A DNA stretch of 14,389 nt from the NCBI GenBank assembly GCA_043803945.1, contig JAZDJN010000009.1:1-14389 (forward strand). Direction: 5' to 3'. This document shows, piece after piece, positions 1-14,389 of this stretch. The stretch comes from a bacterium (GTDB lineage: Bacteria > Bacteroidota > Ignavibacteria > UBA10030). Made by a program: the position numbers and the translations under genes. A model generated the notes under the pieces. That model was not told the DNA's origin and did not search any database. It worked only from the letters and a program-made list of their open reading frames with translations. Position 1 is the stretch's first letter; each line of letters begins with the position of its first letter.

Positions 1-136
1 GCCGTGAACTTAGTACGACGTGTTCCCACGTCTTACCTCACGGTGGCTTCGACTTGAACGACAAATTTCGCCGTATGGTTCTTTCATCCATATAGGTATT
101 TTGTTATGTTGTTGCTACGCACGCCTCGTGGCGTAC
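1..136 (-). mobile_element. Probable group II intron, 5' end/domain I (truncated by the window edge; RT ORF and domains II-VI would lie beyond position 1)
   Basis: The minus strand from 136 begins GUACG (GUGYG-like 5' end), exactly where identity to the repeat copy at 14297-14389 stops. It continues with hairpin UAUGG-AUGAAAGAA-CCAUA (92-74), hairpin CGGC-GAAAUUU-GUCG (73-59), AGCC (48-45), ACC-GUGA-GGU (44-35), GACGUG-GGAA-CACGUC (32-17, GNRA loop) and GGC (3-1), which can pair with GCC (47-45). This order resembles IA/IB/IC with epsilon' and theta of bacterial (IIC-like) introns. The comparison is from memory, not a search. Confidence 0.68.
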
Positions 137-269
137 CAAAGGACACTAAGGATGCGAAGAATAAAAAGAAAAAGGAGTAATGGAAATTTAAATTAATTCA
201 ACAGTTTTTCCTTTATGTCCTTTGTGAACTTTGTGGTTTGATTATGTTCTTAACTTTTCGGCCAGTTCT
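137..269. mobile_element. MITE/REP-like palindromic element A (left end displaced by the intron insertion)
   Basis: Left heptamers are [ca]caaag 137-141, cactaag 144-150 and tgcgaag 153-159, followed by an AT-rich core. Inverted heptamers are ctttatg 211-217, ctttgtg 220-226 and ctttgtg 229-235. The terminal repeat acttttcggccagttct is at 253-269, then CTAG 270-273. Positions 137-229 match 14297-14389 at 92/93. Confidence 0.8.
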
Positions 270-273
270 CTAG

Positions 274-446
274 AGACCCGGTTGAAAAGTATAGGAAATA
301 ATTTAACCACCAAGAAACACGAAGGAAGAACTGTAAAAATGATAAAATTTCGAATCAATTTAATTTCATTTTATACTTTGTGTCCTTCGTTCCTTCTTCG
401 TGCTCTTCGTGTAACATCTTCGTGGTTGGACTTTTTGTCCAAGCTT
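274..446. mobile_element. MITE/REP-like palindromic element B (173 bp), flanked by CTAG 270-273 and CTAG 447-450
   Basis: Ends are agacccggttgaaaagt (274-290) and actttttgtccaagctt (430-446). Heptamers caccaag 308-314 and cacgaag 318-324 face ctttgtg 376-382, cttcgtt 385-391 and cttcgtg at 396-402, 405-411 and 418-424. The core is AT-rich. Confidence 0.8.
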
Positions 447-932
447 CTAGTTCTTTGGTAATTGATTCAGGGCTTTGTCAATAATTTTTTTATGCCTCTC
501 GGTATCGAGGGTTTCATCGAGAATTTTCCCCGCGGCCCGGATTGCCAGATCAGCTACTTCATTTCGAAGCTGCAGTTTCGCCGCATCGATGTCGCGCTGA
601 AGTTCATCCTTTGCCGCCAGCAGTTCACGCTGAGCCTGATGATGTGCTTTTTGCACAATCTCCTCTTTTAATTTCTCAGCGAGGGACTTTCCTTCCCGAA
701 TAATTTTTTGAAATTCCTCCTCTGCACGGGCAAGGTTTTGCTCATTCTGCTTGAGAAGCTGTGCCGCTTCTGCACGCGCCTTTTCGGCCTGACTCAGGGC
801 GGAACGAATTCCGTCTTCACGATCCTGAAGGCTTTTCAGCAACGGCTTCCACGCATATTTCCCTAACACCAGTGCAAGGAGGACAAACGTGACAATTGTC
901 CAGATCATCAATCCCGGATTAATATCAAACAT
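447..932 (-). CDS. atpF: F0F1 ATP synthase subunit b
   Basis: 161 aa with a single N-terminal TM helix (INPGLMIWTIVTFVLL...KYAWKP) followed by a long charged coiled coil; lies directly after atpE. Confidence 0.96.
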   Translation of the reverse strand: MFDINPGLMIWTIVTFVLLALVLGKYAWKPLLKSLQDREDGIRSALSQAEKARAEAAQLLKQNEQNLARAEEEFQKIIREGKSLAEKLKEEIVQKAHHQAQRELLAAKDELQRDIDAAKLQLRNEVADLAIRAAGKILDETLDTERHKKIIDKALNQLPKN

Positions 933-949
933 ATCGTCGGGGCCCTTAC

Positions 950-1186
950 TTACTTGACTGCGAGAATTATACAGACTGCAAGGGCAAAAAATGTTGCACC
1001 TTCAATGAGTGTTGCCGCAATCAGCATGGATGTTCGTACCTGGCCTGCCACTTCGGGTTGACGTCCGCTGGCATCCATAGCTGCAGCCGCAAGCTTACCT
1101 ATACCGAATGATGCGCCGAGCACCACGAGGCCTGCACCGAATCCCGCCGCAAGATATCCTAAAGCAATTGCTAATGAACCTTCCAT
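950..1186 (-). CDS. atpE: F0F1 ATP synthase subunit c (probably H+-coupled)
   Basis: 78 aa hairpin with a Gly-rich first helix, RQPE loop and conserved Glu in LIEGA. It lacks the E-S/T signature of Na+ c-rings. RBS AGGAGG on the minus strand at 1194-1199. Confidence 0.97.
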   Translation of the reverse strand: MEGSLAIALGYLAAGFGAGLVVLGASFGIGKLAAAAMDASGRQPEVAGQVRTSMLIAATLIEGATFFALAVCIILAVK

Positions 1187-1242
1187 TGTAATTCCTCCTA
1201 CGTGTTACGAGAATAAATGAGTTTCATGTTAATTAACTACGA

Positions 1243-2175
1243 TCAGTGTGCATGTTCCGTTTCTTCGTGAGCATGCTCCGCTTGCATCCCCAGTCCCATA
1301 AATAACGAGGTGAGCATCGTGAAGACATACGCCTGCAGGAATGCCACAAAGAGCTCGAGCATATTAATTCCGAGGACAAAGAGAATCGGAATTGGGGCGA
1401 TGACCGGTGATCGGAACAGGAAGATCATCCCGATCAAAGAAAGAATGACAATATGCCCGCCAGTCATATTCGCGAACAAACGGATACAGAGTGCAAATGG
1501 CTTGGTAAACAATCCGAGAATTTCTATGGGAATCATAATCGGCCACAAGAGAACGGGAACACCCCCGGTCAAGTGAGCCAGATAGTGCTTTATTCCCTGT
1601 GCCCGGATTGCAGAAAATTGAATCATGAGAAATGCAATGAAGGCAAGGCCGGCCGTTACGGAAACATTTGAGGTGGCTGTTACACCGAAAGGAATGAGTC
1701 CGAGCAAATTCAGAATGAGAATGAAAAAGAAAGTGGTGAGGAGGTACGATAGATACTTCATGCCACCCGGCCCCATATTAGGTAATGCAATTTCATCACG
1801 GATAAAGACGATGAAGACTTCAACAAGATTTCCAATTCCAGTTGGGACTGCAGCCTTCCGGTTTTTTCTCGCTGTATAGGTCGTCAGCAGAATCACCAGC
1901 AGTGCTGAGAACAGGAGAAAGAAGACATGCTTAGAGATAGAGAGATCGATAGAGAGACCGCCGATGTGGAGTGGAGCGAAATGCGGAAGCTCGATGTGCC
2001 CCCAGGGAAGTTCAAGCTCCTGAGAGTTCTTCATGTGATCGAGCAAGTGGCTGAACTCGAATTTTTCTCCATGTCCACCCGCAGAGAGCGCAGCCGCCTG
2101 TACAGTATCAGCCGCAGCCCGACTTGCGTGTTTCAGGGTATCGAGCACCATTGTAGGATCAGAATTCCACATCAT
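1243..2175 (-). CDS. atpB: F0F1 ATP synthase subunit a
   Basis: Contains NLLGLIP, KPFALCIRLFANMTGGH (essential Arg) and ELFVAFLQAYVF, plus a His/Glu-rich C-terminal tail. The exact start codon is uncertain. Confidence 0.96.
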   Translation of the reverse strand: MMWNSDPTMVLDTLKHASRAAADTVQAAALSAGGHGEKFEFSHLLDHMKNSQELELPWGHIELPHFAPLHIGGLSIDLSISKHVFFLLFSALLVILLTTYTARKNRKAAVPTGIGNLVEVFIVFIRDEIALPNMGPGGMKYLSYLLTTFFFILILNLLGLIPFGVTATSNVSVTAGLAFIAFLMIQFSAIRAQGIKHYLAHLTGGVPVLLWPIMIPIEILGLFTKPFALCIRLFANMTGGHIVILSLIGMIFLFRSPVIAPIPILFVLGINMLELFVAFLQAYVFTMLTSLFMGLGMQAEHAHEETEHAH

Positions 2176-2181
2176 ACTGAG

Positions 2182-2565
2182 TTATACCTTTAATGCTACT
2201 TTTTTCTGCAGATAGTAAATCTCAAGCACCAGATTCAACGCGTAAAACACGAGCAACGACAACATGAACGAGAGTGGATCAAATTGCAGAATTTTTATCA
2301 GGACAATAACAATTGAGATCAAGAGCGCTAACCGAACCACCGAACCGATAAGGATAATTTTCAGGAACTTTGTATGCGACATTGGAAAACCCCACTCGAT
2401 CGCAATATAGCTTAAAAACTGGTTCACCAGCATCGAAAGCCCGCTGGCAAAAACACTGACTGCAAGTGTGCGGTTCCCGATTGCCTCAAAAAAAACCGCT
2501 CCCAGACAGGCAGGGAGAAATAACACCAACGTCATTAACACGATAAACGATCGATCGAACTTCAC
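2182..2565 (-). CDS. atpI: ATP synthase protein I-like membrane protein (about 4 TM helices)
   Basis: 127 aa, very hydrophobic, GTG start, immediately upstream of atpB. Assigned by position and hydropathy. Confidence 0.72.
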   Translation of the reverse strand: MKFDRSFIVLMTLVLFLPACLGAVFFEAIGNRTLAVSVFASGLSMLVNQFLSYIAIEWGFPMSHTKFLKIILIGSVVRLALLISIVIVLIKILQFDPLSFMLSLLVFYALNLVLEIYYLQKKVALKV

Positions 2566-2567
2566 TG

Positions 2568-2843
2568 TTACTCTTTATGACTCGATTTCTCTAAGTACGC
2601 AGCAGTTTTAAAAAACTTGATCATCCCGCCGATTGCCCCAAGGAAGATCCCAAGGAGTTTACAGAGCGGCGATGAATTCCAGATCCCATCCAGCCACCAG
2701 CCAAGAAGAAAGAACAACATAATAGCTGCAGCAAGCTGAAATCCCATAGTCAAATATGGGCCAAAGTCACGATACACTTGTCCGAACCCCGGCAACAGCT
2801 CAGGCTTGCGATCCTGCTCAGACTTATTGGATTCGGAAGACAT
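2568..2843 (-). CDS. AtpZ/AtpI-family (ATPase gene 1) two-TM protein
   Basis: Has the pattern G-x-x-L-A...LLGWWLDGIWNSSP...LLGIFLG typical of the family. ATG at 2843 has a GGAG RBS at 2851-2854 and is preferred over the GTG at 2870. Confidence 0.85.
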   Translation of the reverse strand: MSSESNKSEQDRKPELLPGFGQVYRDFGPYLTMGFQLAAAIMLFFLLGWWLDGIWNSSPLCKLLGIFLGAIGGMIKFFKTAAYLEKSSHKE

Positions 2844-2881
2844 CGCACCACTCCAATCGCTGCGAAGCACTTAAGATAATA

Positions 2882-3247
2882 TTAATGCCGGGAATCCTGT
2901 GAATACGGCGTTGACTTCTCGGACATGTTCACTTTGCCATCGAACTTACACCCCTCATCGATGACGAGTGTGGCTGCCCGGATATCCCCTTTCACCACCG
3001 CCTTACCCTCAAAGACAAGTTTTTCAGAGGCAGTAATGGCACCATGGACTTTCCCACCGACCGTGACATTCTTGGCCGTGGTATTACCTTCAATCTCTCC
3101 GGTAAGTCCAACAGCAAGATTTTCACTCGCGGTAACATCTCCCACAAGTTTTCCGTCGATGCGCACACTTCCCTGGCTCTTGATCTTTCCTTCGACAACT
3201 GTACCAGCGCCGATAAGATTCAACTCTTTAACCGGATCGGTTTTCAC
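2882..3247 (-). CDS. Bactofilin (polymer-forming cytoskeletal protein, CcmA-like)
   Basis: Beta-helix repeats NLIGAGTVVEGKI...VRIDGKLVGDV...VTVGGKVHGAI...VKGDI...LVIDEGCKFDGKVNM. GTG start with an AGAGGT RBS upstream. Confidence 0.93.
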   Translation of the reverse strand: MKTDPVKELNLIGAGTVVEGKIKSQGSVRIDGKLVGDVTASENLAVGLTGEIEGNTTAKNVTVGGKVHGAITASEKLVFEGKAVVKGDIRAATLVIDEGCKFDGKVNMSEKSTPYSQDSRH

Positions 3248-3257
3248 AGGAGCACCT

Positions 3258-4142
3258 CTAAAAATTGTAGTTTAACATGTACTGCGATGGATTCACCGGA
3301 GAACCATCTTTCCAAATTTCAAAGTGCAGGTGCGGACCAGCGCTTGTTTCGCCCGTATTGCCGAGGTGAGCAATTGCCTCACCCCGCCTGACGAATGCAC
3401 CCGGTGTCCGTAATAAAAACTGGTTGTGTTTATAAAAGGTGAGATATCCTCCTGCATGCGAGATAATCACCTTATAGCCATCATCGCTTGTCCAGCCGGC
3501 AAACACGATATTACCATCAGCGGCAGCCTGCACCAGCGTTCCTGTTTTCCCCGCTATATCAAGGCCAAAATGGTTGCGTGCGGGATCGAATCTTCTCGAA
3601 ATATATCCTTCTGTCGGCATTATCACCGGAAAGGCAGTCACTCTGGGATCATTTCTGAGTTGTTCCGTGGTGCCGGATTGCCTCTGTGAAGGATTGACTG
3701 TTTTACTCTGCCCCTCACGCTTCTGTCCATTTTCGCTCCGGTTCGATGCATCATCGAGAGTGGAGGAACGTGATGAGAGGTTACGGAGAGAGTCTTTTCC
3801 TGTCGGTTTCTCACCGAGCGCTCTCCGTAAACGCGTATTATACTCACTCAGGACGACCATCTGCTCTGCCATTCCTGTCATCCGCTCACTTAAGCCGACA
3901 ATTTGTTTACCGTAGCGGTTTTCAAGTTCCGGATTGGAAATGGGCACAAGGCCGCCAAGTGGTGTATAGATGAGGATCAGAAGCACAACACCAACAACAA
4001 CTATAATAGACCCTGAGAGCAGTGCTATAACCTGCCAGAGAGAGAAACGAATTCGACGAGATTCACCGGCATCTCCACTTGGAACAAGGAGAAGATCGTA
4101 ACGTATTTTTTTTGACTTATGATGTTGTCGCTCGTCTGCCAT
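3258..4142 (-). CDS. M23 family (LytM) metallopeptidase with N-terminal TM helix and coiled coil
   Basis: Motifs HFGLD (HxxxD), YKHN and GPHLHFEI (HxH); TM segment LWQVIALLSG...LILI. ATG at 4142 (MADER) with GAAGG upstream is preferred over 4160. Confidence 0.93.
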   Translation of the reverse strand: MADERQHHKSKKIRYDLLLVPSGDAGESRRIRFSLWQVIALLSGSIIVVVGVVLLILIYTPLGGLVPISNPELENRYGKQIVGLSERMTGMAEQMVVLSEYNTRLRRALGEKPTGKDSLRNLSSRSSTLDDASNRSENGQKREGQSKTVNPSQRQSGTTEQLRNDPRVTAFPVIMPTEGYISRRFDPARNHFGLDIAGKTGTLVQAAADGNIVFAGWTSDDGYKVIISHAGGYLTFYKHNQFLLRTPGAFVRRGEAIAHLGNTGETSAGPHLHFEIWKDGSPVNPSQYMLNYNF

Positions 4143-4216
4143 AGCACCTTCGTATCTCACCCCACTGCATCTAAAAAGAAGCCCGTAATGGCTTTCCTTC
4201 TCAAAAATGGCTTGAA

Positions 4217-4245
4217 AATATAAAGAAAAGAGCCCCTAAAGTCAA
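4217..4245 (-). promoter_or_regulatory. Putative sigma70 promoter for the M23-bactofilin-atp operon
   Basis: Minus strand TTGACT (4245-4240), 17-nt spacer, TATATT (4222-4217), about 75 nt upstream of the M23 start. Confidence 0.6.
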
Positions 4246-4344
4246 AAACTTTCTCGGTGTAAATCTATGAATTTTAAGCACTTGAAGAGATACAGAGCAC
4301 CATCTCTGCATTCGCTCCGTTCTGGAAAGAGGATCTGCAGCCGC

Positions 4345-5466
4345 TCAGACGTCAAAGTGGAGAGCAATTTTCTCCTCAATGTAATCAGCGATTTTTTTCT
4401 TGAAGGAGTCACGATTAAAGAGCGCGGCATGAGAACGGATTGCTGATGGATTAAATGATCGTGACTGGAGTTGTTCCATCGCGGCAAGCAAAGCCTGTAC
4501 CGTTTGCTCCCGGAAGAAAACTCCTGTCGGATGATCTCCCTCGCCGACAACAGTCTCAAGCGCTCCCCCCTCGCCCAAAGCAATAATCGGTTTTCCGCAT
4601 GCCATTGCCTCAAGCGGAACAATGCCGAAGTCCTCCACTCCGGGAAAGAGAAGTGCGTGACAGCGTGAATATAATCTGACGAGCTCTTCATCGGATTGCC
4701 AACCGAGGAATTCGACGTTCTTCGGCGCCATCGCCTGCAGCTTTTCACTCTCAGGCCCCCGGCCAACGATGATGAGCCGCTCTGGCCTGAAACGAAATGC
4801 TTCAATCGCAAGGTCGATTCGTTTGTAGGGTACCAGTGCACTGACGATCAGGAAGTAACCATCATCCTGTTTCGAAAGCTGGAACTTTTCCATATCGACG
4901 GGAGCGCAGAGAATATCAGCAGAACGATGATAATAGTACTGAATCCGGTTGGCAACATTTCTTGAGTTGGCAAGAAAATAATGTACGCGGTTGCAGGTGT
5001 TAACATCCCATGCACGCAGCTTCGGTGCAACGACTGCCATCGCTGTTCGCATAATAAATCCCGCTCGCCCCGGACCGAAGTATTCATCATAGAGTTCCCA
5101 GACATATCGCATCGGCGTGTGACAGTAACAGATGTGGAGAGCATTCGTTGCAGGAAGTGCTCCCTTTGCAACACAATGGCTCGTTGAAAGAATAAGATCG
5201 TAATCGTGGAAATCGAACGACTCGATGGCGAGGGGGAACAATGGAAGATAATGCCGATACCTGGTCGTCTTCAAAGGAAGTCGATCGATAAATGAAGTTC
5301 GAAGCTCATGGGATTCGATCGTCGATGAAACGGATCCTTTGTTATGGAGCAGGGTGAAGAGCGTTGCTTGTGGATAAAGTTCACAGAGCACTTCCAGTAC
5401 CTTTTCACCGCCGCGCATACCGGTGAGCCAATCATGTACAAGGGCAATCCGTAGAGAGGAATTCAT
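4345..5466 (-). CDS. Glycosyltransferase family 4 (GT-B fold)
   Basis: N-terminal ALVHDWLTGMRGGEKVL, YCHTPMRY, YKRIDLAI and the EDFGIVPLEAMACGKP (E-x7-E) motif. Confidence 0.93.
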   Translation of the reverse strand: MNSSLRIALVHDWLTGMRGGEKVLEVLCELYPQATLFTLLHNKGSVSSTIESHELRTSFIDRLPLKTTRYRHYLPLFPLAIESFDFHDYDLILSTSHCVAKGALPATNALHICYCHTPMRYVWELYDEYFGPGRAGFIMRTAMAVVAPKLRAWDVNTCNRVHYFLANSRNVANRIQYYYHRSADILCAPVDMEKFQLSKQDDGYFLIVSALVPYKRIDLAIEAFRFRPERLIIVGRGPESEKLQAMAPKNVEFLGWQSDEELVRLYSRCHALLFPGVEDFGIVPLEAMACGKPIIALGEGGALETVVGEGDHPTGVFFREQTVQALLAAMEQLQSRSFNPSAIRSHAALFNRDSFKKKIADYIEEKIALHFDV

Positions 5467-12600: not shown

Positions 12601-14130
12601 ATGCGAAAATTCTTTTTACTTACTCAAATCATTATAATTTTTCTCTTGGGTTTATTTTGGGGGTGCATGGATCTCAATGTGTCGAATCCCAATTCACCGG
12701 ATAAGGATAAAGCGCTCGCGAGTCCTTCCGACCTCGAAGGGTACATCATGGGTTCCTATCGACTTGTTTTTAACGGATCTCAAGCACAATTCTTCCAGAA
12801 CATAACCCTCAGTACCATGGCAGACGTGCATACTTCTTCGTACGGCAATTGGGGTATGCAAGAATGTTCATCCGAGCCGCGGGTAGCTTTTCCTAATGGC
12901 CCGGGGTTTGGATATAGTGGTGATTTCTATTCCCCCTGGCAGGGAACCTACCGTGGTATCGCACAAGCTCACGATGGCATTGAGATTATCAAGGCTGGTA
13001 CAAAAATCGTGGATGTGAATAATGTAAACCAGACCACACGGACGCTTGCCTGGGCATATTTTGCACGAGGTATTGCCTACGGATGGCTCGCAATGAATTA
13101 TGACCAGGGGTACATACTGGAAGGAACCATCACGCAGGCTACCAAGCTTCCACTAAAGCCGTACACTGAACTTTTAAAGGCTGCATTGGCGGATCTGGAT
13201 GAGTGCATAAAGATTTGTGCAACAACATTTACCATTCCCAATTCTTCTACCGTTTGCAATGGCCTCACCATTACCAACACCGACCTCAAGAAGATTTGCT
13301 ATTCTTATAAAGCTCGATACAGAGCTTGTGTGGCGCGTACCGTTGCGGAACGTGCTGCGGTGGATTGGGCTACAGTCATTGCAGATGCTCAAAATGGAAT
13401 CACGACCGATTTCGCTCCTGTTGGAGACAACATCTTATTCTGGGAATATGGGAAATATTATGGAAGCGATCCTTCCTGGACGCGAACAGATTATAAACTC
13501 ATTGGCATCACGGATACATCGGGCGGCTATCAGGCGTGGCTGAACACACCTCTTACCTCACGGTCTGAGTTCCTTATTAAATCAGCCGATAAGCGAATTC
13601 ATCTTCCCGGTGATAACACAAAGGACGGTACCGATTTTGGCGTAGCAACTGCTTCTCCTTTTCCGCCAGATCGTGGCACTTACCACCACTCACGGTACTA
13701 TCATAAACGGTATAGCTACTTCAGGCCTCAATATCTTGGCCCAATGCCCGTGTTTATCATCCCCGAGATCGATCTGCTAATTGCGGAAGGTAAATTAAGG
13801 GCCAATGATAAAGCAGGGGCAGTCACTTTGATTAATAAGACGAGAGTAACGCGAGGTGGACTGAAAGCGTTAACCGGAACCGAGGCTACGGATGAAATTA
13901 TGAAGTGGTTAAAATATGAGAAGCTGATTGAAACGATGACAACCGCAGCCGGATTGGTGTTTTGGGATCGGCGCGGATGGGGCGATCTGGTGACAAACAC
14001 ACCCGTTCAGCTTCCGATTCCAGGTCGTGAACTGGATATTATCGTAATGACAAATTATACATTTGGCGGCGGTGGAGCTTTCTCGGCACCCAAAATCAAT
14101 TTTGGCCCGATTAAAGTAATCCCGTTCTAG
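12601..14130 (+). CDS. SusD/RagB family surface lipoprotein
   Basis: Lipoprotein signal ending LFWG-C, directly downstream of susC. Shows SusD-like patterns AYFARGIAYG, ALADLDECI, EIDLLIAEG...INKTR, EKLIE...FWDRRGWG and LPIP. Confidence 0.9.
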   Translation: MRKFFLLTQIIIIFLLGLFWGCMDLNVSNPNSPDKDKALASPSDLEGYIMGSYRLVFNGSQAQFFQNITLSTMADVHTSSYGNWGMQECSSEPRVAFPNGPGFGYSGDFYSPWQGTYRGIAQAHDGIEIIKAGTKIVDVNNVNQTTRTLAWAYFARGIAYGWLAMNYDQGYILEGTITQATKLPLKPYTELLKAALADLDECIKICATTFTIPNSSTVCNGLTITNTDLKKICYSYKARYRACVARTVAERAAVDWATVIADAQNGITTDFAPVGDNILFWEYGKYYGSDPSWTRTDYKLIGITDTSGGYQAWLNTPLTSRSEFLIKSADKRIHLPGDNTKDGTDFGVATASPFPPDRGTYHHSRYYHKRYSYFRPQYLGPMPVFIIPEIDLLIAEGKLRANDKAGAVTLINKTRVTRGGLKALTGTEATDEIMKWLKYEKLIETMTTAAGLVFWDRRGWGDLVTNTPVQLPIPGRELDIIVMTNYTFGGGGAFSAPKINFGPIKVIPF

Positions 14131-14268
14131 AGACCTGGCCGAAAAGTGACTTTGCCACTGAGTCACAGAGAGCACAGAGATAGTCTTTTTGAAATATTGA
14201 GGATATAATAAACATTTATTGATCTCAGTGAACTCTGTGTCTCCGTGGCGGACTTTTCGACCGGCTCT
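14131..14268. mobile_element. MITE/REP-like palindromic element C (138 bp), flanked by CTAG 14127-14130 and CTAG 14269-14272
   Basis: Terminal inverted repeats agacctggccgaaaagt (14131-14147) and acttttcgaccggctct (14252-14268) match at 14/17. Heptamers cactgag-t-cacagag-ag-cacagag (14156-14179) are mirrored by ctcagtg-aa-ctctgtg-t-ctccgtg (14224-14247). Confidence 0.83.
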
Positions 14269-14272
14269 CTAG

Positions 14273-14389
14273 AAACTTGGACGAAAAGTCCAACCACAAA
14301 GGACACTAAGGATGCGAAGAATAAAAAGAAAAAGGAGTAATGGAAATTTAAATTAATTCAACAGTTTTTCCTTTATGTCCTTGGTGAAC
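14273..14389. mobile_element. MITE/REP-like palindromic element D (truncated by the window end); intron-free counterpart of element A
   Basis: Begins aaacttggacgaaaagt-ccaac-cacaaag-ga-cactaag-ga-tgcgaag. Positions 14297-14389 match 137-229 except for one base (223 t vs 14383 g). Confidence 0.83.

Follow-up and report, generated by a model that had tools for sequence, protein, structure and literature searches.

RmInt1 has ISRm2011-2 as its natural target. For this intron, PMC8914252 describes a reverse splicing reaction whose substrate is single-stranded DNA at the replication fork. The sections on target choice in the review literature (PMC4424553; PMC12584367) distinguish three target specificities of bacterial group II introns: a unique homing site, a terminator or an attC site. 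In Pseudomonas putida KT2440, two of nine group II intron copies were recorded as REP-associated in the relevant part of a 2006 survey (PMC1525189). Ge.ur.I1-1, a class F (IIF) intron of Geobacter uraniireducens, is described in the passages devoted to it as having an IBS2, CGUGU, directly before an IBS1, AUUCG, with further copies of IBS1 9 and 19 nt upstream (Nagy et al., PMC3753933). In the openly searchable full-text papers, the homing of group II introns into MITEs or tandem arrays is undescribed, the IBS1 copies of Ge.ur.I1-1 being the sole and unexplained exception.

The locus described here lies at the start of contig C9 in a 5.54-Mb genome assembled in 118 contigs; by the window we mean the whole stretch of 14,389 nt from this contig that was analysed. 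A sequence-only reading of the window had proposed that a group II intron is inserted into the arm of a palindromic repeat. Our analysis leads us to the view, to which we attach a probability of roughly 0.85, that a mobile intron of IIB-like (class-F-like) type, whose reverse transcriptase (RT) lacks an endonuclease domain, has entered one arm of a MITE by at least three separate retrohoming events, the site being specified by pairing of intron RNA with target DNA.

Filled and empty sites within the window

Read on the minus strand, the window passes from repeat to intron at 137|136 with the sequence ...CTTAGTGTCCTTTG|GTACGCCACGAGG; bases 136 down to 1 run GUACGCCACGAGG... and are preceded by ...CTTAGTGTCCTTTG. 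The corresponding empty site lies on the minus strand at 14296|14297 and reads ...CTTAGTGTCCTTTG|TGGTTGGACTTTT, with an exact 17-nt match at 14288–14304. Both junctions are lettered as they had first been written down, and the filled and the empty site are indeed both contained in the window.

The occupied repeat, referred to here as copy A, extends over positions 137–273 on the minus strand. It is matched by nhmmer with E = 1.4e-33 over model positions 1–138, the intron cutting it at model position 138 of 166, and in the repeat census five other genomic copies, intact and full-length or near so, are 96–98% identical to window positions 137–273. A near-identical twin of copy A in which the site is empty occupies 14269–14389 on the minus strand and ends at the contig end; by eye, 92 of the 93 bases common to the twin and copy A are identical. 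Two further copies are present in the window. The first, at 270–450 on the plus strand, is a diverged copy in the opposite orientation (nhmmer, model positions 1–166), which has one CTAG end in common with copy A and itself ends ...CATCTTCG|TGGTTGGAC. It carries unoccupied TCTTCG|T sequences at 409|410 and 422|423, each a 6/6 match to the EBS1 defined below. The second, at 14127–14272 on the plus strand, was identified from its sequence and by nhmmer; it has the same terminal inverted repeat around a different internal array, made up of CTCTGTG-type units.

The genes atpB, atpE and atpF, encoding the F0 a, c and b subunits (447–2175, minus strand; Pfam ATP-synt_A, ATP-synt_C and ATP-synt_B), precede the repeats and the intron and share their orientation, so that read-through transcription might originate from them.

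The intron and its reverse transcriptase

Positions 1–136 of the window (minus strand) are the first 136 of the 1934 nt of the intron, beginning GUACG... and forming part of domain I. They are 100% identical to C5:1–136 and to C21:60639–60774. The remainder of the C9 copy lies beyond the start of the contig, but the full sequence is assembled at C21:58841–60774 on the minus strand. Searching the window alone against Rfam gave no match at gathering thresholds, since the 136-nt piece is too short and a match needs the C21 copy. With that copy, RF02005 (group-II-D1D4-6) is matched at intron positions 53–275 with 62.6 bits (gathering 49), and RF00029 (Intron_gpII, domains V–VI) with 54.2 bits (gathering 40; E = 6.9e-10), the latter match covering the last 80 nt and ending exactly at the 3′ boundary.

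Between the domain I and the domain V–VI matches, in domain IV, lies an ORF of 499 aa with similarity to RVT_1 (E = 6.3e-39) and GIIM (E = 6.9e-08), which reaches 390 bits (cut-off 300) with TIGR04416, the NCBIfam equivalog for group II RT/maturases. Its translation contains the YADD motif, as RYADDF, and a domain search of this RT/maturase ORF found the endonuclease domain to be absent. The two ribozyme matches above gathering and the RT/maturase ORF establish the element as a group II intron, and the features that the sequence-only reading had expected beyond position 1, namely an RT/maturase ORF with YADD and a domain V, are both present in the C21 continuation.

The boundaries of the intron were set where its copies diverge, using three copies at the 5′ end and four at the 3′ end. 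They are 5′ GUACG, which is GUGYG-like, and 3′ ...CUAC, an AY end. The minus strand of positions 1–136 had been described as a series of consecutive hairpins, two of them with GNRA loops. The hairpins are upheld by a predicted folding energy of −43.2 kcal/mol (z = −3.1), with 1 of 200 shuffled sequences folding as well, and one GNRA loop is present (GGAA); the other is not, the first loop being ACGA.

The repeat family

A census by nhmmer, seeded with the empty copy and run on both strands, returned 145 matches that merge into 82 loci. These loci account for 0.22% of the genome, and 43 of them approach the full length of ~166 nt. The element starts and ends with CTAG and has a terminal inverted repeat of ~21 nt. 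Compared at occupied sites, neighbouring copies overlap by CTAG, an observation that bears on a possible target-site duplication. Its interior consists of two imperfectly complementary arms built of 9–10-nt units, CAC followed by a hexamer in one arm and a hexamer followed by GTG in the other. The unit had been called a heptamer; its length is nearer 9–10 nt. Sub-families with the same ends have other interiors, among them the CTCTGTG-type array seen at 14127–14272 and a GC-rich hairpin type.

The terminal repeat pattern CTAGARACNTGGNCGAAAAGT has 51 matches in this genome, 34 in the relative G004 and 2–5 in four other relatives, while the reversed control pattern has none in this genome and 0–1 over the genomes searched. 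In G004, the 21-nt terminal repeat adjoins a transposase ORF of the DUF772 family, and in the present genome a 57% identical DUF772 ORF at C13:472–1434 is likewise adjoined by the MITE terminal repeat, at one end only. When the present genome was searched for a full insertion sequence with both MITE ends, only the intron-filled element was found. From the association of the terminal repeat with a transposase ORF in both genomes, we conclude that the repeat, which is short, non-coding and multicopy, is a genuine MITE belonging to an insertion sequence of the IS5/IS1182-like type.

Exon junctions and copy number

Intron termini are found at five contig ends, the 5′ end on C9 and C5 and the 3′ end on C66, C99 and C1. 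By our own reading, these five contigs stop ~141 nt past the point at which the copies diverge, which is the behaviour of a k-mer assembler at repeats. Since four distinct 3′ exons can be read, the intron is present in at least four copies. The interior assembled on C21 is a collapsed consensus, so that copy-specific EBS1 variants are invisible in it. No other RT of the intron's family occurs in the assembly, in which two distant RTs are encoded on C7 and C98.

The three assembled 5′ junctions read GTG-T-CCTTTG| on C9, GTG-T-TCTTTG| on C5 and GCG-T-CCTTAG| on C21. As had been anticipated, the 5′ exons are copies of the repeat in all three cases, and the junctions lie in the same arm of the MITE, in the same orientation, at model positions 129–138 of 166. 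A gene in the same orientation lies upstream of each of these copies. On the 3′ side, C99 and C1 continue |TGGTTGGACTTTTCGTCCAAG..., the repeat resuming as TGGTTGGACTTTTCG...CTAG or CCAG, and C21 continues |TGTCCTTCGTGGTTGG..., the repeat being resumed one unit further upstream. The AY end of the intron is thus followed by resumption of the repeat, as had been predicted, at three of the four assembled 3′ junctions. The fourth, |TGGCAGC... on C66, is outside any MITE copy, and we count it against the main explanation.

Intron-bearing MITEs could have arisen by a single entry of the intron into the repeat, the composite then having been copied by the MITE transposase. The filled element does retain both terminal repeats, 2090 bp apart, and a transposase could in principle move it as one. 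This course of events is nevertheless extremely improbable. The C9 and C21 copies are 87% identical over 270 nt, 136 nt of which are the identical intron, so that the repeat part is only about three-quarters identical, and the alignment with C5 extends only 13 nt past the intron. The three flanking MITE halves are accordingly diverged or of different sub-types while the intron ends that they enclose are identical, the insertion point on C21 is one unit off those on C9 and C5, and relatives of the intron in other phyla occupy the same EBS-matched array context. Because the flanks have diverged, the intron ends are 100% identical and the C21 site is one unit upstream, we regard the three insertions, as judged from their sequences, as independent and recent, with no composite copied by MITE transposition. 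The presence of identical ends at different sites suggests recent mobility.

Recognition of the target site

Of 537 relatives, 79 loci with RTs 45–76% identical to that of the present intron formed the related set, in which the exon junctions could be read from the RNA ends. The 5′ 330 nt of the intron can be aligned with 67 stretches in these 79 loci, one of which is on the opposite strand of its locus. Alignment of domain I of 25 distinct introns beside their exons brought out three covarying elements. EBS1 comprises 6 nt in a 9-nt loop of domain I, a hairpin loop that is also present in the Rfam consensus, and is CGAAGA in the present intron. EBS2 comprises 3 nt in the internal loop just upstream of EBS1, here CGC. 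EBS3 is a single nucleotide, the central A in GGGGUA-A-GAU. An early candidate for EBS1 at intron positions 125–131 (CUAAG) was rejected after the alignment had been made.

The covariation was quantified for 40 junctions representing 19 EBS types, locus L034 having been dropped because it has no exon sequence. EBS1 forms on average 5.30 of 6 pairs with exon positions −1 to −6, compared with 3.88 when shuffled, and none of 2000 shuffles was as good. EBS2 forms 2.87 of 3 pairs with a triplet 1–2 nt upstream of IBS1, compared with 2.30 when shuffled (none of 5000 as good); this significance is reached only with a 1-nt shift allowed, a choice made after seeing the data, and at a fixed offset the pairing is non-significant (344 of 2000 shuffles as good). 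EBS3 forms a Watson–Crick pair with the first base of the 3′ exon in 23 of 24 introns and is paired in all 24; the six introns with an exon starting with C all have G as EBS3. The EBS1 matching the CTTYG unit and the EBS3 pairing with T, both of which had been foreseen, were thus found by covariation. We conclude from the presence of a 6-nt EBS1, an EBS2 and an EBS3 that recognition is of the IIB type and not of the IIC type.

In copy A, IBS1 is CCUUUG, the hexamer with which the 5′ exon ends (137–142, minus strand), which is assigned by the EBS1–IBS1 covariation and pairs with EBS1 at five of six positions. IBS2 is GUG (144–146, minus strand), which is assigned by the EBS2–IBS2 covariation with its flexible offset and pairs with CGC through one G–U pair among the three. 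The assembled EBS1 forms only four of six pairs with the 5′ exon on C21, where there is a G·A opposition at −2 and the adjacent unit pairs better; this mismatch too counts against the main explanation.

For this genome, the pairing reduces to the target rule GYG-N(1–2)-(C/T)CTTYG|T, which corresponds to one unit of the 9–10-nt array of the MITE together with the start of the next. The base following IBS3 is G in nearly all junctions. Among 41 elements with the TGGTTGGAC landmark, 27 match EBS1 at five or more of six positions at one common unit. Motifs with perfect pairing number 216 in the genome, 6 of them in MITEs and 210 outside, and relaxed target motifs number 770, with 76 in MITE loci; were the frequency of the relaxed motif to govern which sites are used, the chance of finding three of three junctions in MITEs would be ~0.001 by simple arithmetic. 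Pairing alone is therefore probably not sufficient to confine the intron to MITEs: 210 of the 216 strict sites lie outside these elements and none of the three 5′ junctions does, so that something in addition to these 10 nt has to be involved. Insertions in genes may be selected against, the protein may make contacts with the DNA (for which the near-constant G after IBS3 would be a candidate), or the palindrome may influence single-strandedness or fork pausing.

Related introns and their arrays

The related loci come from Ignavibacteriota, Bacteroidota, Planctomycetota, Lentisphaerota, Spirochaetota and others, and their 5′ exons are visibly arrays, as in ...AATCCGTGTAATCTGTGAAATCCG|TG..., ...CTCTGTGATTCCTCTGTGAGGCTCTG|TG... 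and ...ATTTGTGAAAATTTGTGAAATTTG|TG.... At least one further EBS1-matching site is present within 60 nt in 33 of 37 junctions, and the spacing between neighbouring EBS1-matching sites is 9 or 10 nt in 40 of 71 cases. It is this peak in the spacing that is informative, the density of loose EBS1 matches near the junctions being enriched only 1.3-fold and 2.2-fold. In 24 of 35 junctions, the preceding 117 nt contain a direct copy of the site core, as against 27 of 430 control windows; the 35 junctions are not independent, 13 of them coming from one Saprospiraceae chromosome. On that chromosome, there are 13 distinct filled sites among the related loci, and the exact 12-nt target motif occurs empty 29 times, compared with 3 for the reversed control. 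The empty sites lie in palindromes of ~75 nt with the organisation GCCAC-(units)-hairpin-(units)-GTGGC.

The arrays themselves might be the work of the intron, if splicing at alternative 5′ sites upstream, followed by retrohoming, were to add one unit per event. The splicing of Ge.ur.I1-1 in vitro lends this idea some substance, the passages concerned describing a main alternative 5′ site that lies 9 nt upstream, with a second one at 19 nt, each after a copy of IBS1 (PMC3753933), and the unit length of 9–10 nt (40 of 71 spacings) equals the IBS2–IBS1–IBS3 footprint. We consider it very unlikely nonetheless, since the number of units up to the junction is the same in copy A, which is filled, as in the empty twin, and the arrays occur also as inverted copies in the other arm of the element. 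Moreover, the MITE terminal repeat is present in G017, G010 and G024, in a search for the ends only, and the intron was not found in these genomes, and for the array type composed of CTCTGTG units the assembly contains no intron that would match.

The closest relative, in G004, has 78% DNA identity to the present intron and is present in three copies, at a conserved site that is not an array, ...ACCGCAGCTTAG|CGCCAATC. The different, non-array target of this relative is counted against the main explanation.

Tentatively, and with somewhat less than even confidence, we propose that these introns represent a lineage without endonuclease domains that spans Ignavibacteriota, Bacteroidota, Planctomycetota and other phyla and is specialised on palindromic arrays of 9–10-nt units made up of a hexamer and GTG. 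In such a lineage, EBS2 would be fixed on GYG while EBS1 tracked the hexamer carried by the repeat family of the host, and the arrays would constitute a fourth target class. If this is true, intron and repeat would have spread in partnership, the arrays being either free-standing or embedded in MITEs.

Stem-loop recognition and intron class

The palindromic nature of the repeat raises the question of whether its DNA stem-loop, with a short IBS1 only, is what the intron recognises, as in IIC introns. The 5′ exon in copy A ends with 10 nt that constitute the 3′ strand of a stem (inverted repeat I5; 16 nt, 88%), and the insertion point coincides exactly with the base of this stem. Many insertions occupy the final unit ahead of the ...GTGG that closes a CCAC...GTGG palindrome, and an inverted copy of the site core is present upstream in 13 of 35 related junctions, compared with 32 of 430 controls. 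This core-motif test replaced a strict palindrome test, in which the final 9 nt had to recur as their reverse complement with one mismatch at most; only 6 of 35 junctions passed it, compared with 10 of 434 controls. Consistent with stem-loop recognition, too, the solved structures that best match the RT are those of IIC enzymes, 7uim (E = 5.6e-57) and GsI-IIC (6.6e-54), ahead of a IIB enzyme (4e-47).

Against these observations, the target covaries with EBS2 and with an EBS1 of 6 nt, as is typical of IIB introns; an inverted copy of the site core is absent from 22 of the 35 related junctions; and the three copies in G004 lie outside palindromic arrays. The site is inside the arm of the stem rather than past it, so that pairing with the intron needs an open stem. 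The hairpin itself is weak: the long repeat hairpin described in the sequence-only reading does fold in the copy at 270–450 (DNA fold z = −2.7), but it is imperfect, and in the truncated copy A the value is −0.35. With a hairpin this modest and pairing that needs the stem to be open, we judge stem-loop recognition to be unlikely; nor is it needed to explain the exact site, which is accounted for by base pairing. The analogy with IIC introns drawn in the sequence-only reading is unsupported, given that EBS2 is present, EBS1 is 6 nt long and insertion takes place inside the arm.

The closeness of the RT to IIC structures leaves the class of the intron undecided, because class F is taken as the outgroup of class C in published trees, according to the part of PMC4748821 that deals with them. 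Class F is defined by a IIB-like RNA having EBS1 and EBS2 in domain Id and by an RT without an endonuclease domain, and this is the combination found here. Class C introns have no EBS2 and an IBS1 of 3–4 nt, whereas in the present set EBS2 covaries and EBS1 averages 5.3 of 6 pairs; they insert just past the stem-loop of a terminator or attC site, whereas the present sites are within the repeat arm, with 28–38 nt of the element remaining 3′ of the insertion. Judged by its endonuclease-less RT, by its EBS1 and EBS2 and by exons like those of Ge.ur.I1-1, the intron is IIB-like and appears to be class-F-like.

Discussion

In the explanation that we favour, that of repeated retrohoming into the MITE arm by RNA–DNA pairing, EBS2 (CGC) would pair with GYG, EBS1 (CGAAGA) with the (C/T)CTTYG that comes next and EBS3 (A) with the T that follows. 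Since these pairing elements together make up one array unit, each copy of the MITE would offer at least one homing site. The MITE is probably spread by the transposase of its insertion sequence, and as it has no coding function and is found 3′ of genes, its multiplication would provide the intron with many sites that are harmless, renewed and open to read-through transcription. The intron is presumably active, may use single-stranded DNA at the replication fork like other introns that lack the endonuclease domain, and could be supplied with RNA by read-through transcription. Apart from the comparison with IIC introns, the interpretation first placed on the window has been supported.

The intron itself appears to belong to a known, class-F-like kind. 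What appears new is its target habit, a variation on behaviour already known, which involves a MITE unit here and array palindromes in the relatives. A homing site in the form of a short unit within a multicopy, non-coding repeat spread by a transposase would add to the classes of target and would explain how introns without an endonuclease domain can proliferate without damaging genes. It would also account for the puzzling upstream copies of IBS1 in Ge.ur.I1-1. The target rule is readable, with EBS2 on GYG, EBS1 on the hexamer and EBS3 on T or C, which makes the system directly testable, and it might serve for multi-copy insertion into genomes. The finding points, moreover, to palindromic GTG-phased arrays that are widespread and unexplained.

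Among described systems, class F introns combine an RT without the endonuclease domain with a IIB-like ribozyme and with EBS1 and EBS2 in domain I, as set out in the relevant passages of PMC3552965 and PMC3753933, and the same combination is found here. The likeness to Ge.ur.I1-1 extends to the exon, which has in the published passages the same GTG-N-hexamer array as is seen here and in the relatives. There, however, the additional copies of IBS1 were published as alternative 5′ splice sites and not as a repeated homing target (PMC3753933), and the passages on Ge.ur.I1-1 give no MITE context, whereas the present intron is in a MITE.

The intron resembles those of class C in lacking the endonuclease domain, in having a target that is intergenic, multicopy and hairpin-forming, as the pertinent sections of PMC4424553 and PMC12584367 describe for that class, and in the closeness of its RT to IIC structures. 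It differs from them in its EBS2, its 6-nt EBS1, its insertion inside the arm and its sequence-defined target. As with RmInt1, the homing site is part of another mobile element, and the copies of the target multiply with that element; in contrast to RmInt1, the target here is a non-coding MITE with a tandem 9–10-nt unit, which thereby offers several sites per element, on both strands. Small palindromic multicopy repeats serve as targets here as they do for the REP-associated elements ISPpu9 and ISPpu10 and for the P. putida intron. In the portion of the survey bearing on the latter, the association with REP is partial and comes with no mechanism, whereas in the present genome the repeat contains all three assembled 5′ junctions, and the pairing by which the intron selects its site has been identified.

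Multiple intron insertions in related loci

More than one insertion is seen at some of the loci found through related reverse transcriptases. At one of these, L024, two full copies of the group II intron lie in tandem (positions 1156–5050), separated by a spacer of only 19 nt in which the target unit is present again; here consecutive units of a single array have each served as a homing site. At locus L019, a second intron 5′ end is found in inverted orientation (291–619, minus strand), and about 450 nt separate it from the full copy downstream (1072–3036, plus strand), an arrangement consistent with insertions in both arms, or on both strands, of neighbouring arrays.

The genome from which the window derives encodes two other reverse transcriptases, at C7:27382–28194 and C98:46952–47686, which are 34% and 26% identical, respectively, to that of the intron. 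For neither gene did the searches run give a matching domain I or domain V.

The MITE copies and their surroundings

The MITE copies in the window (137–450 and 14127–14389) are arranged in pairs, the members of which overlap by the terminal CTAG (273/270 and 14272/14269). This overlap suggests either that the elements insert into CTAG, duplicating it, or that one site has been used more than once. A run consisting of an atpI-like gene, an unassigned 127-aa ORF and atpB–atpE–atpF extends on the minus strand from 2568–2870 to 447 and stops at the repeats. Neither atpH nor atpA follows it within the window, and the F1 genes may therefore lie elsewhere or past the intron.

The IS presumed to be the parent has a copy at C13:472–1434 of the same genome, in which a DUF772 transposase ORF comes directly after the terminal repeat; a search over 6 kb gave no second end. 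At 5.5 Mb, this genome exceeds in size all 30 relatives sampled (1.7–4.4 Mb), and it has the highest number of MITE-end copies among them.

Elements in this genome with the common terminal inverted repeat differ in their interiors, which comprise CCTTYG-GTG arrays, CTCTG-GTG arrays or a GC-rich hairpin of the GCGCAG type; the element at 14127–14272 of the window carries an array of CTCTGTG-type units. The invariant component of the arrays is a GTG every 9–10 nt. Free-standing palindromes of about 75 nt occur at two loci (L101 and L102) of a Saprospiraceae chromosome (G031), with the form GCCAC-(hexamer-CAC)n-small hairpin-(GTG-hexamer)n-GTGGC. Their inner module is the same as that of the MITE, without IS-type ends.
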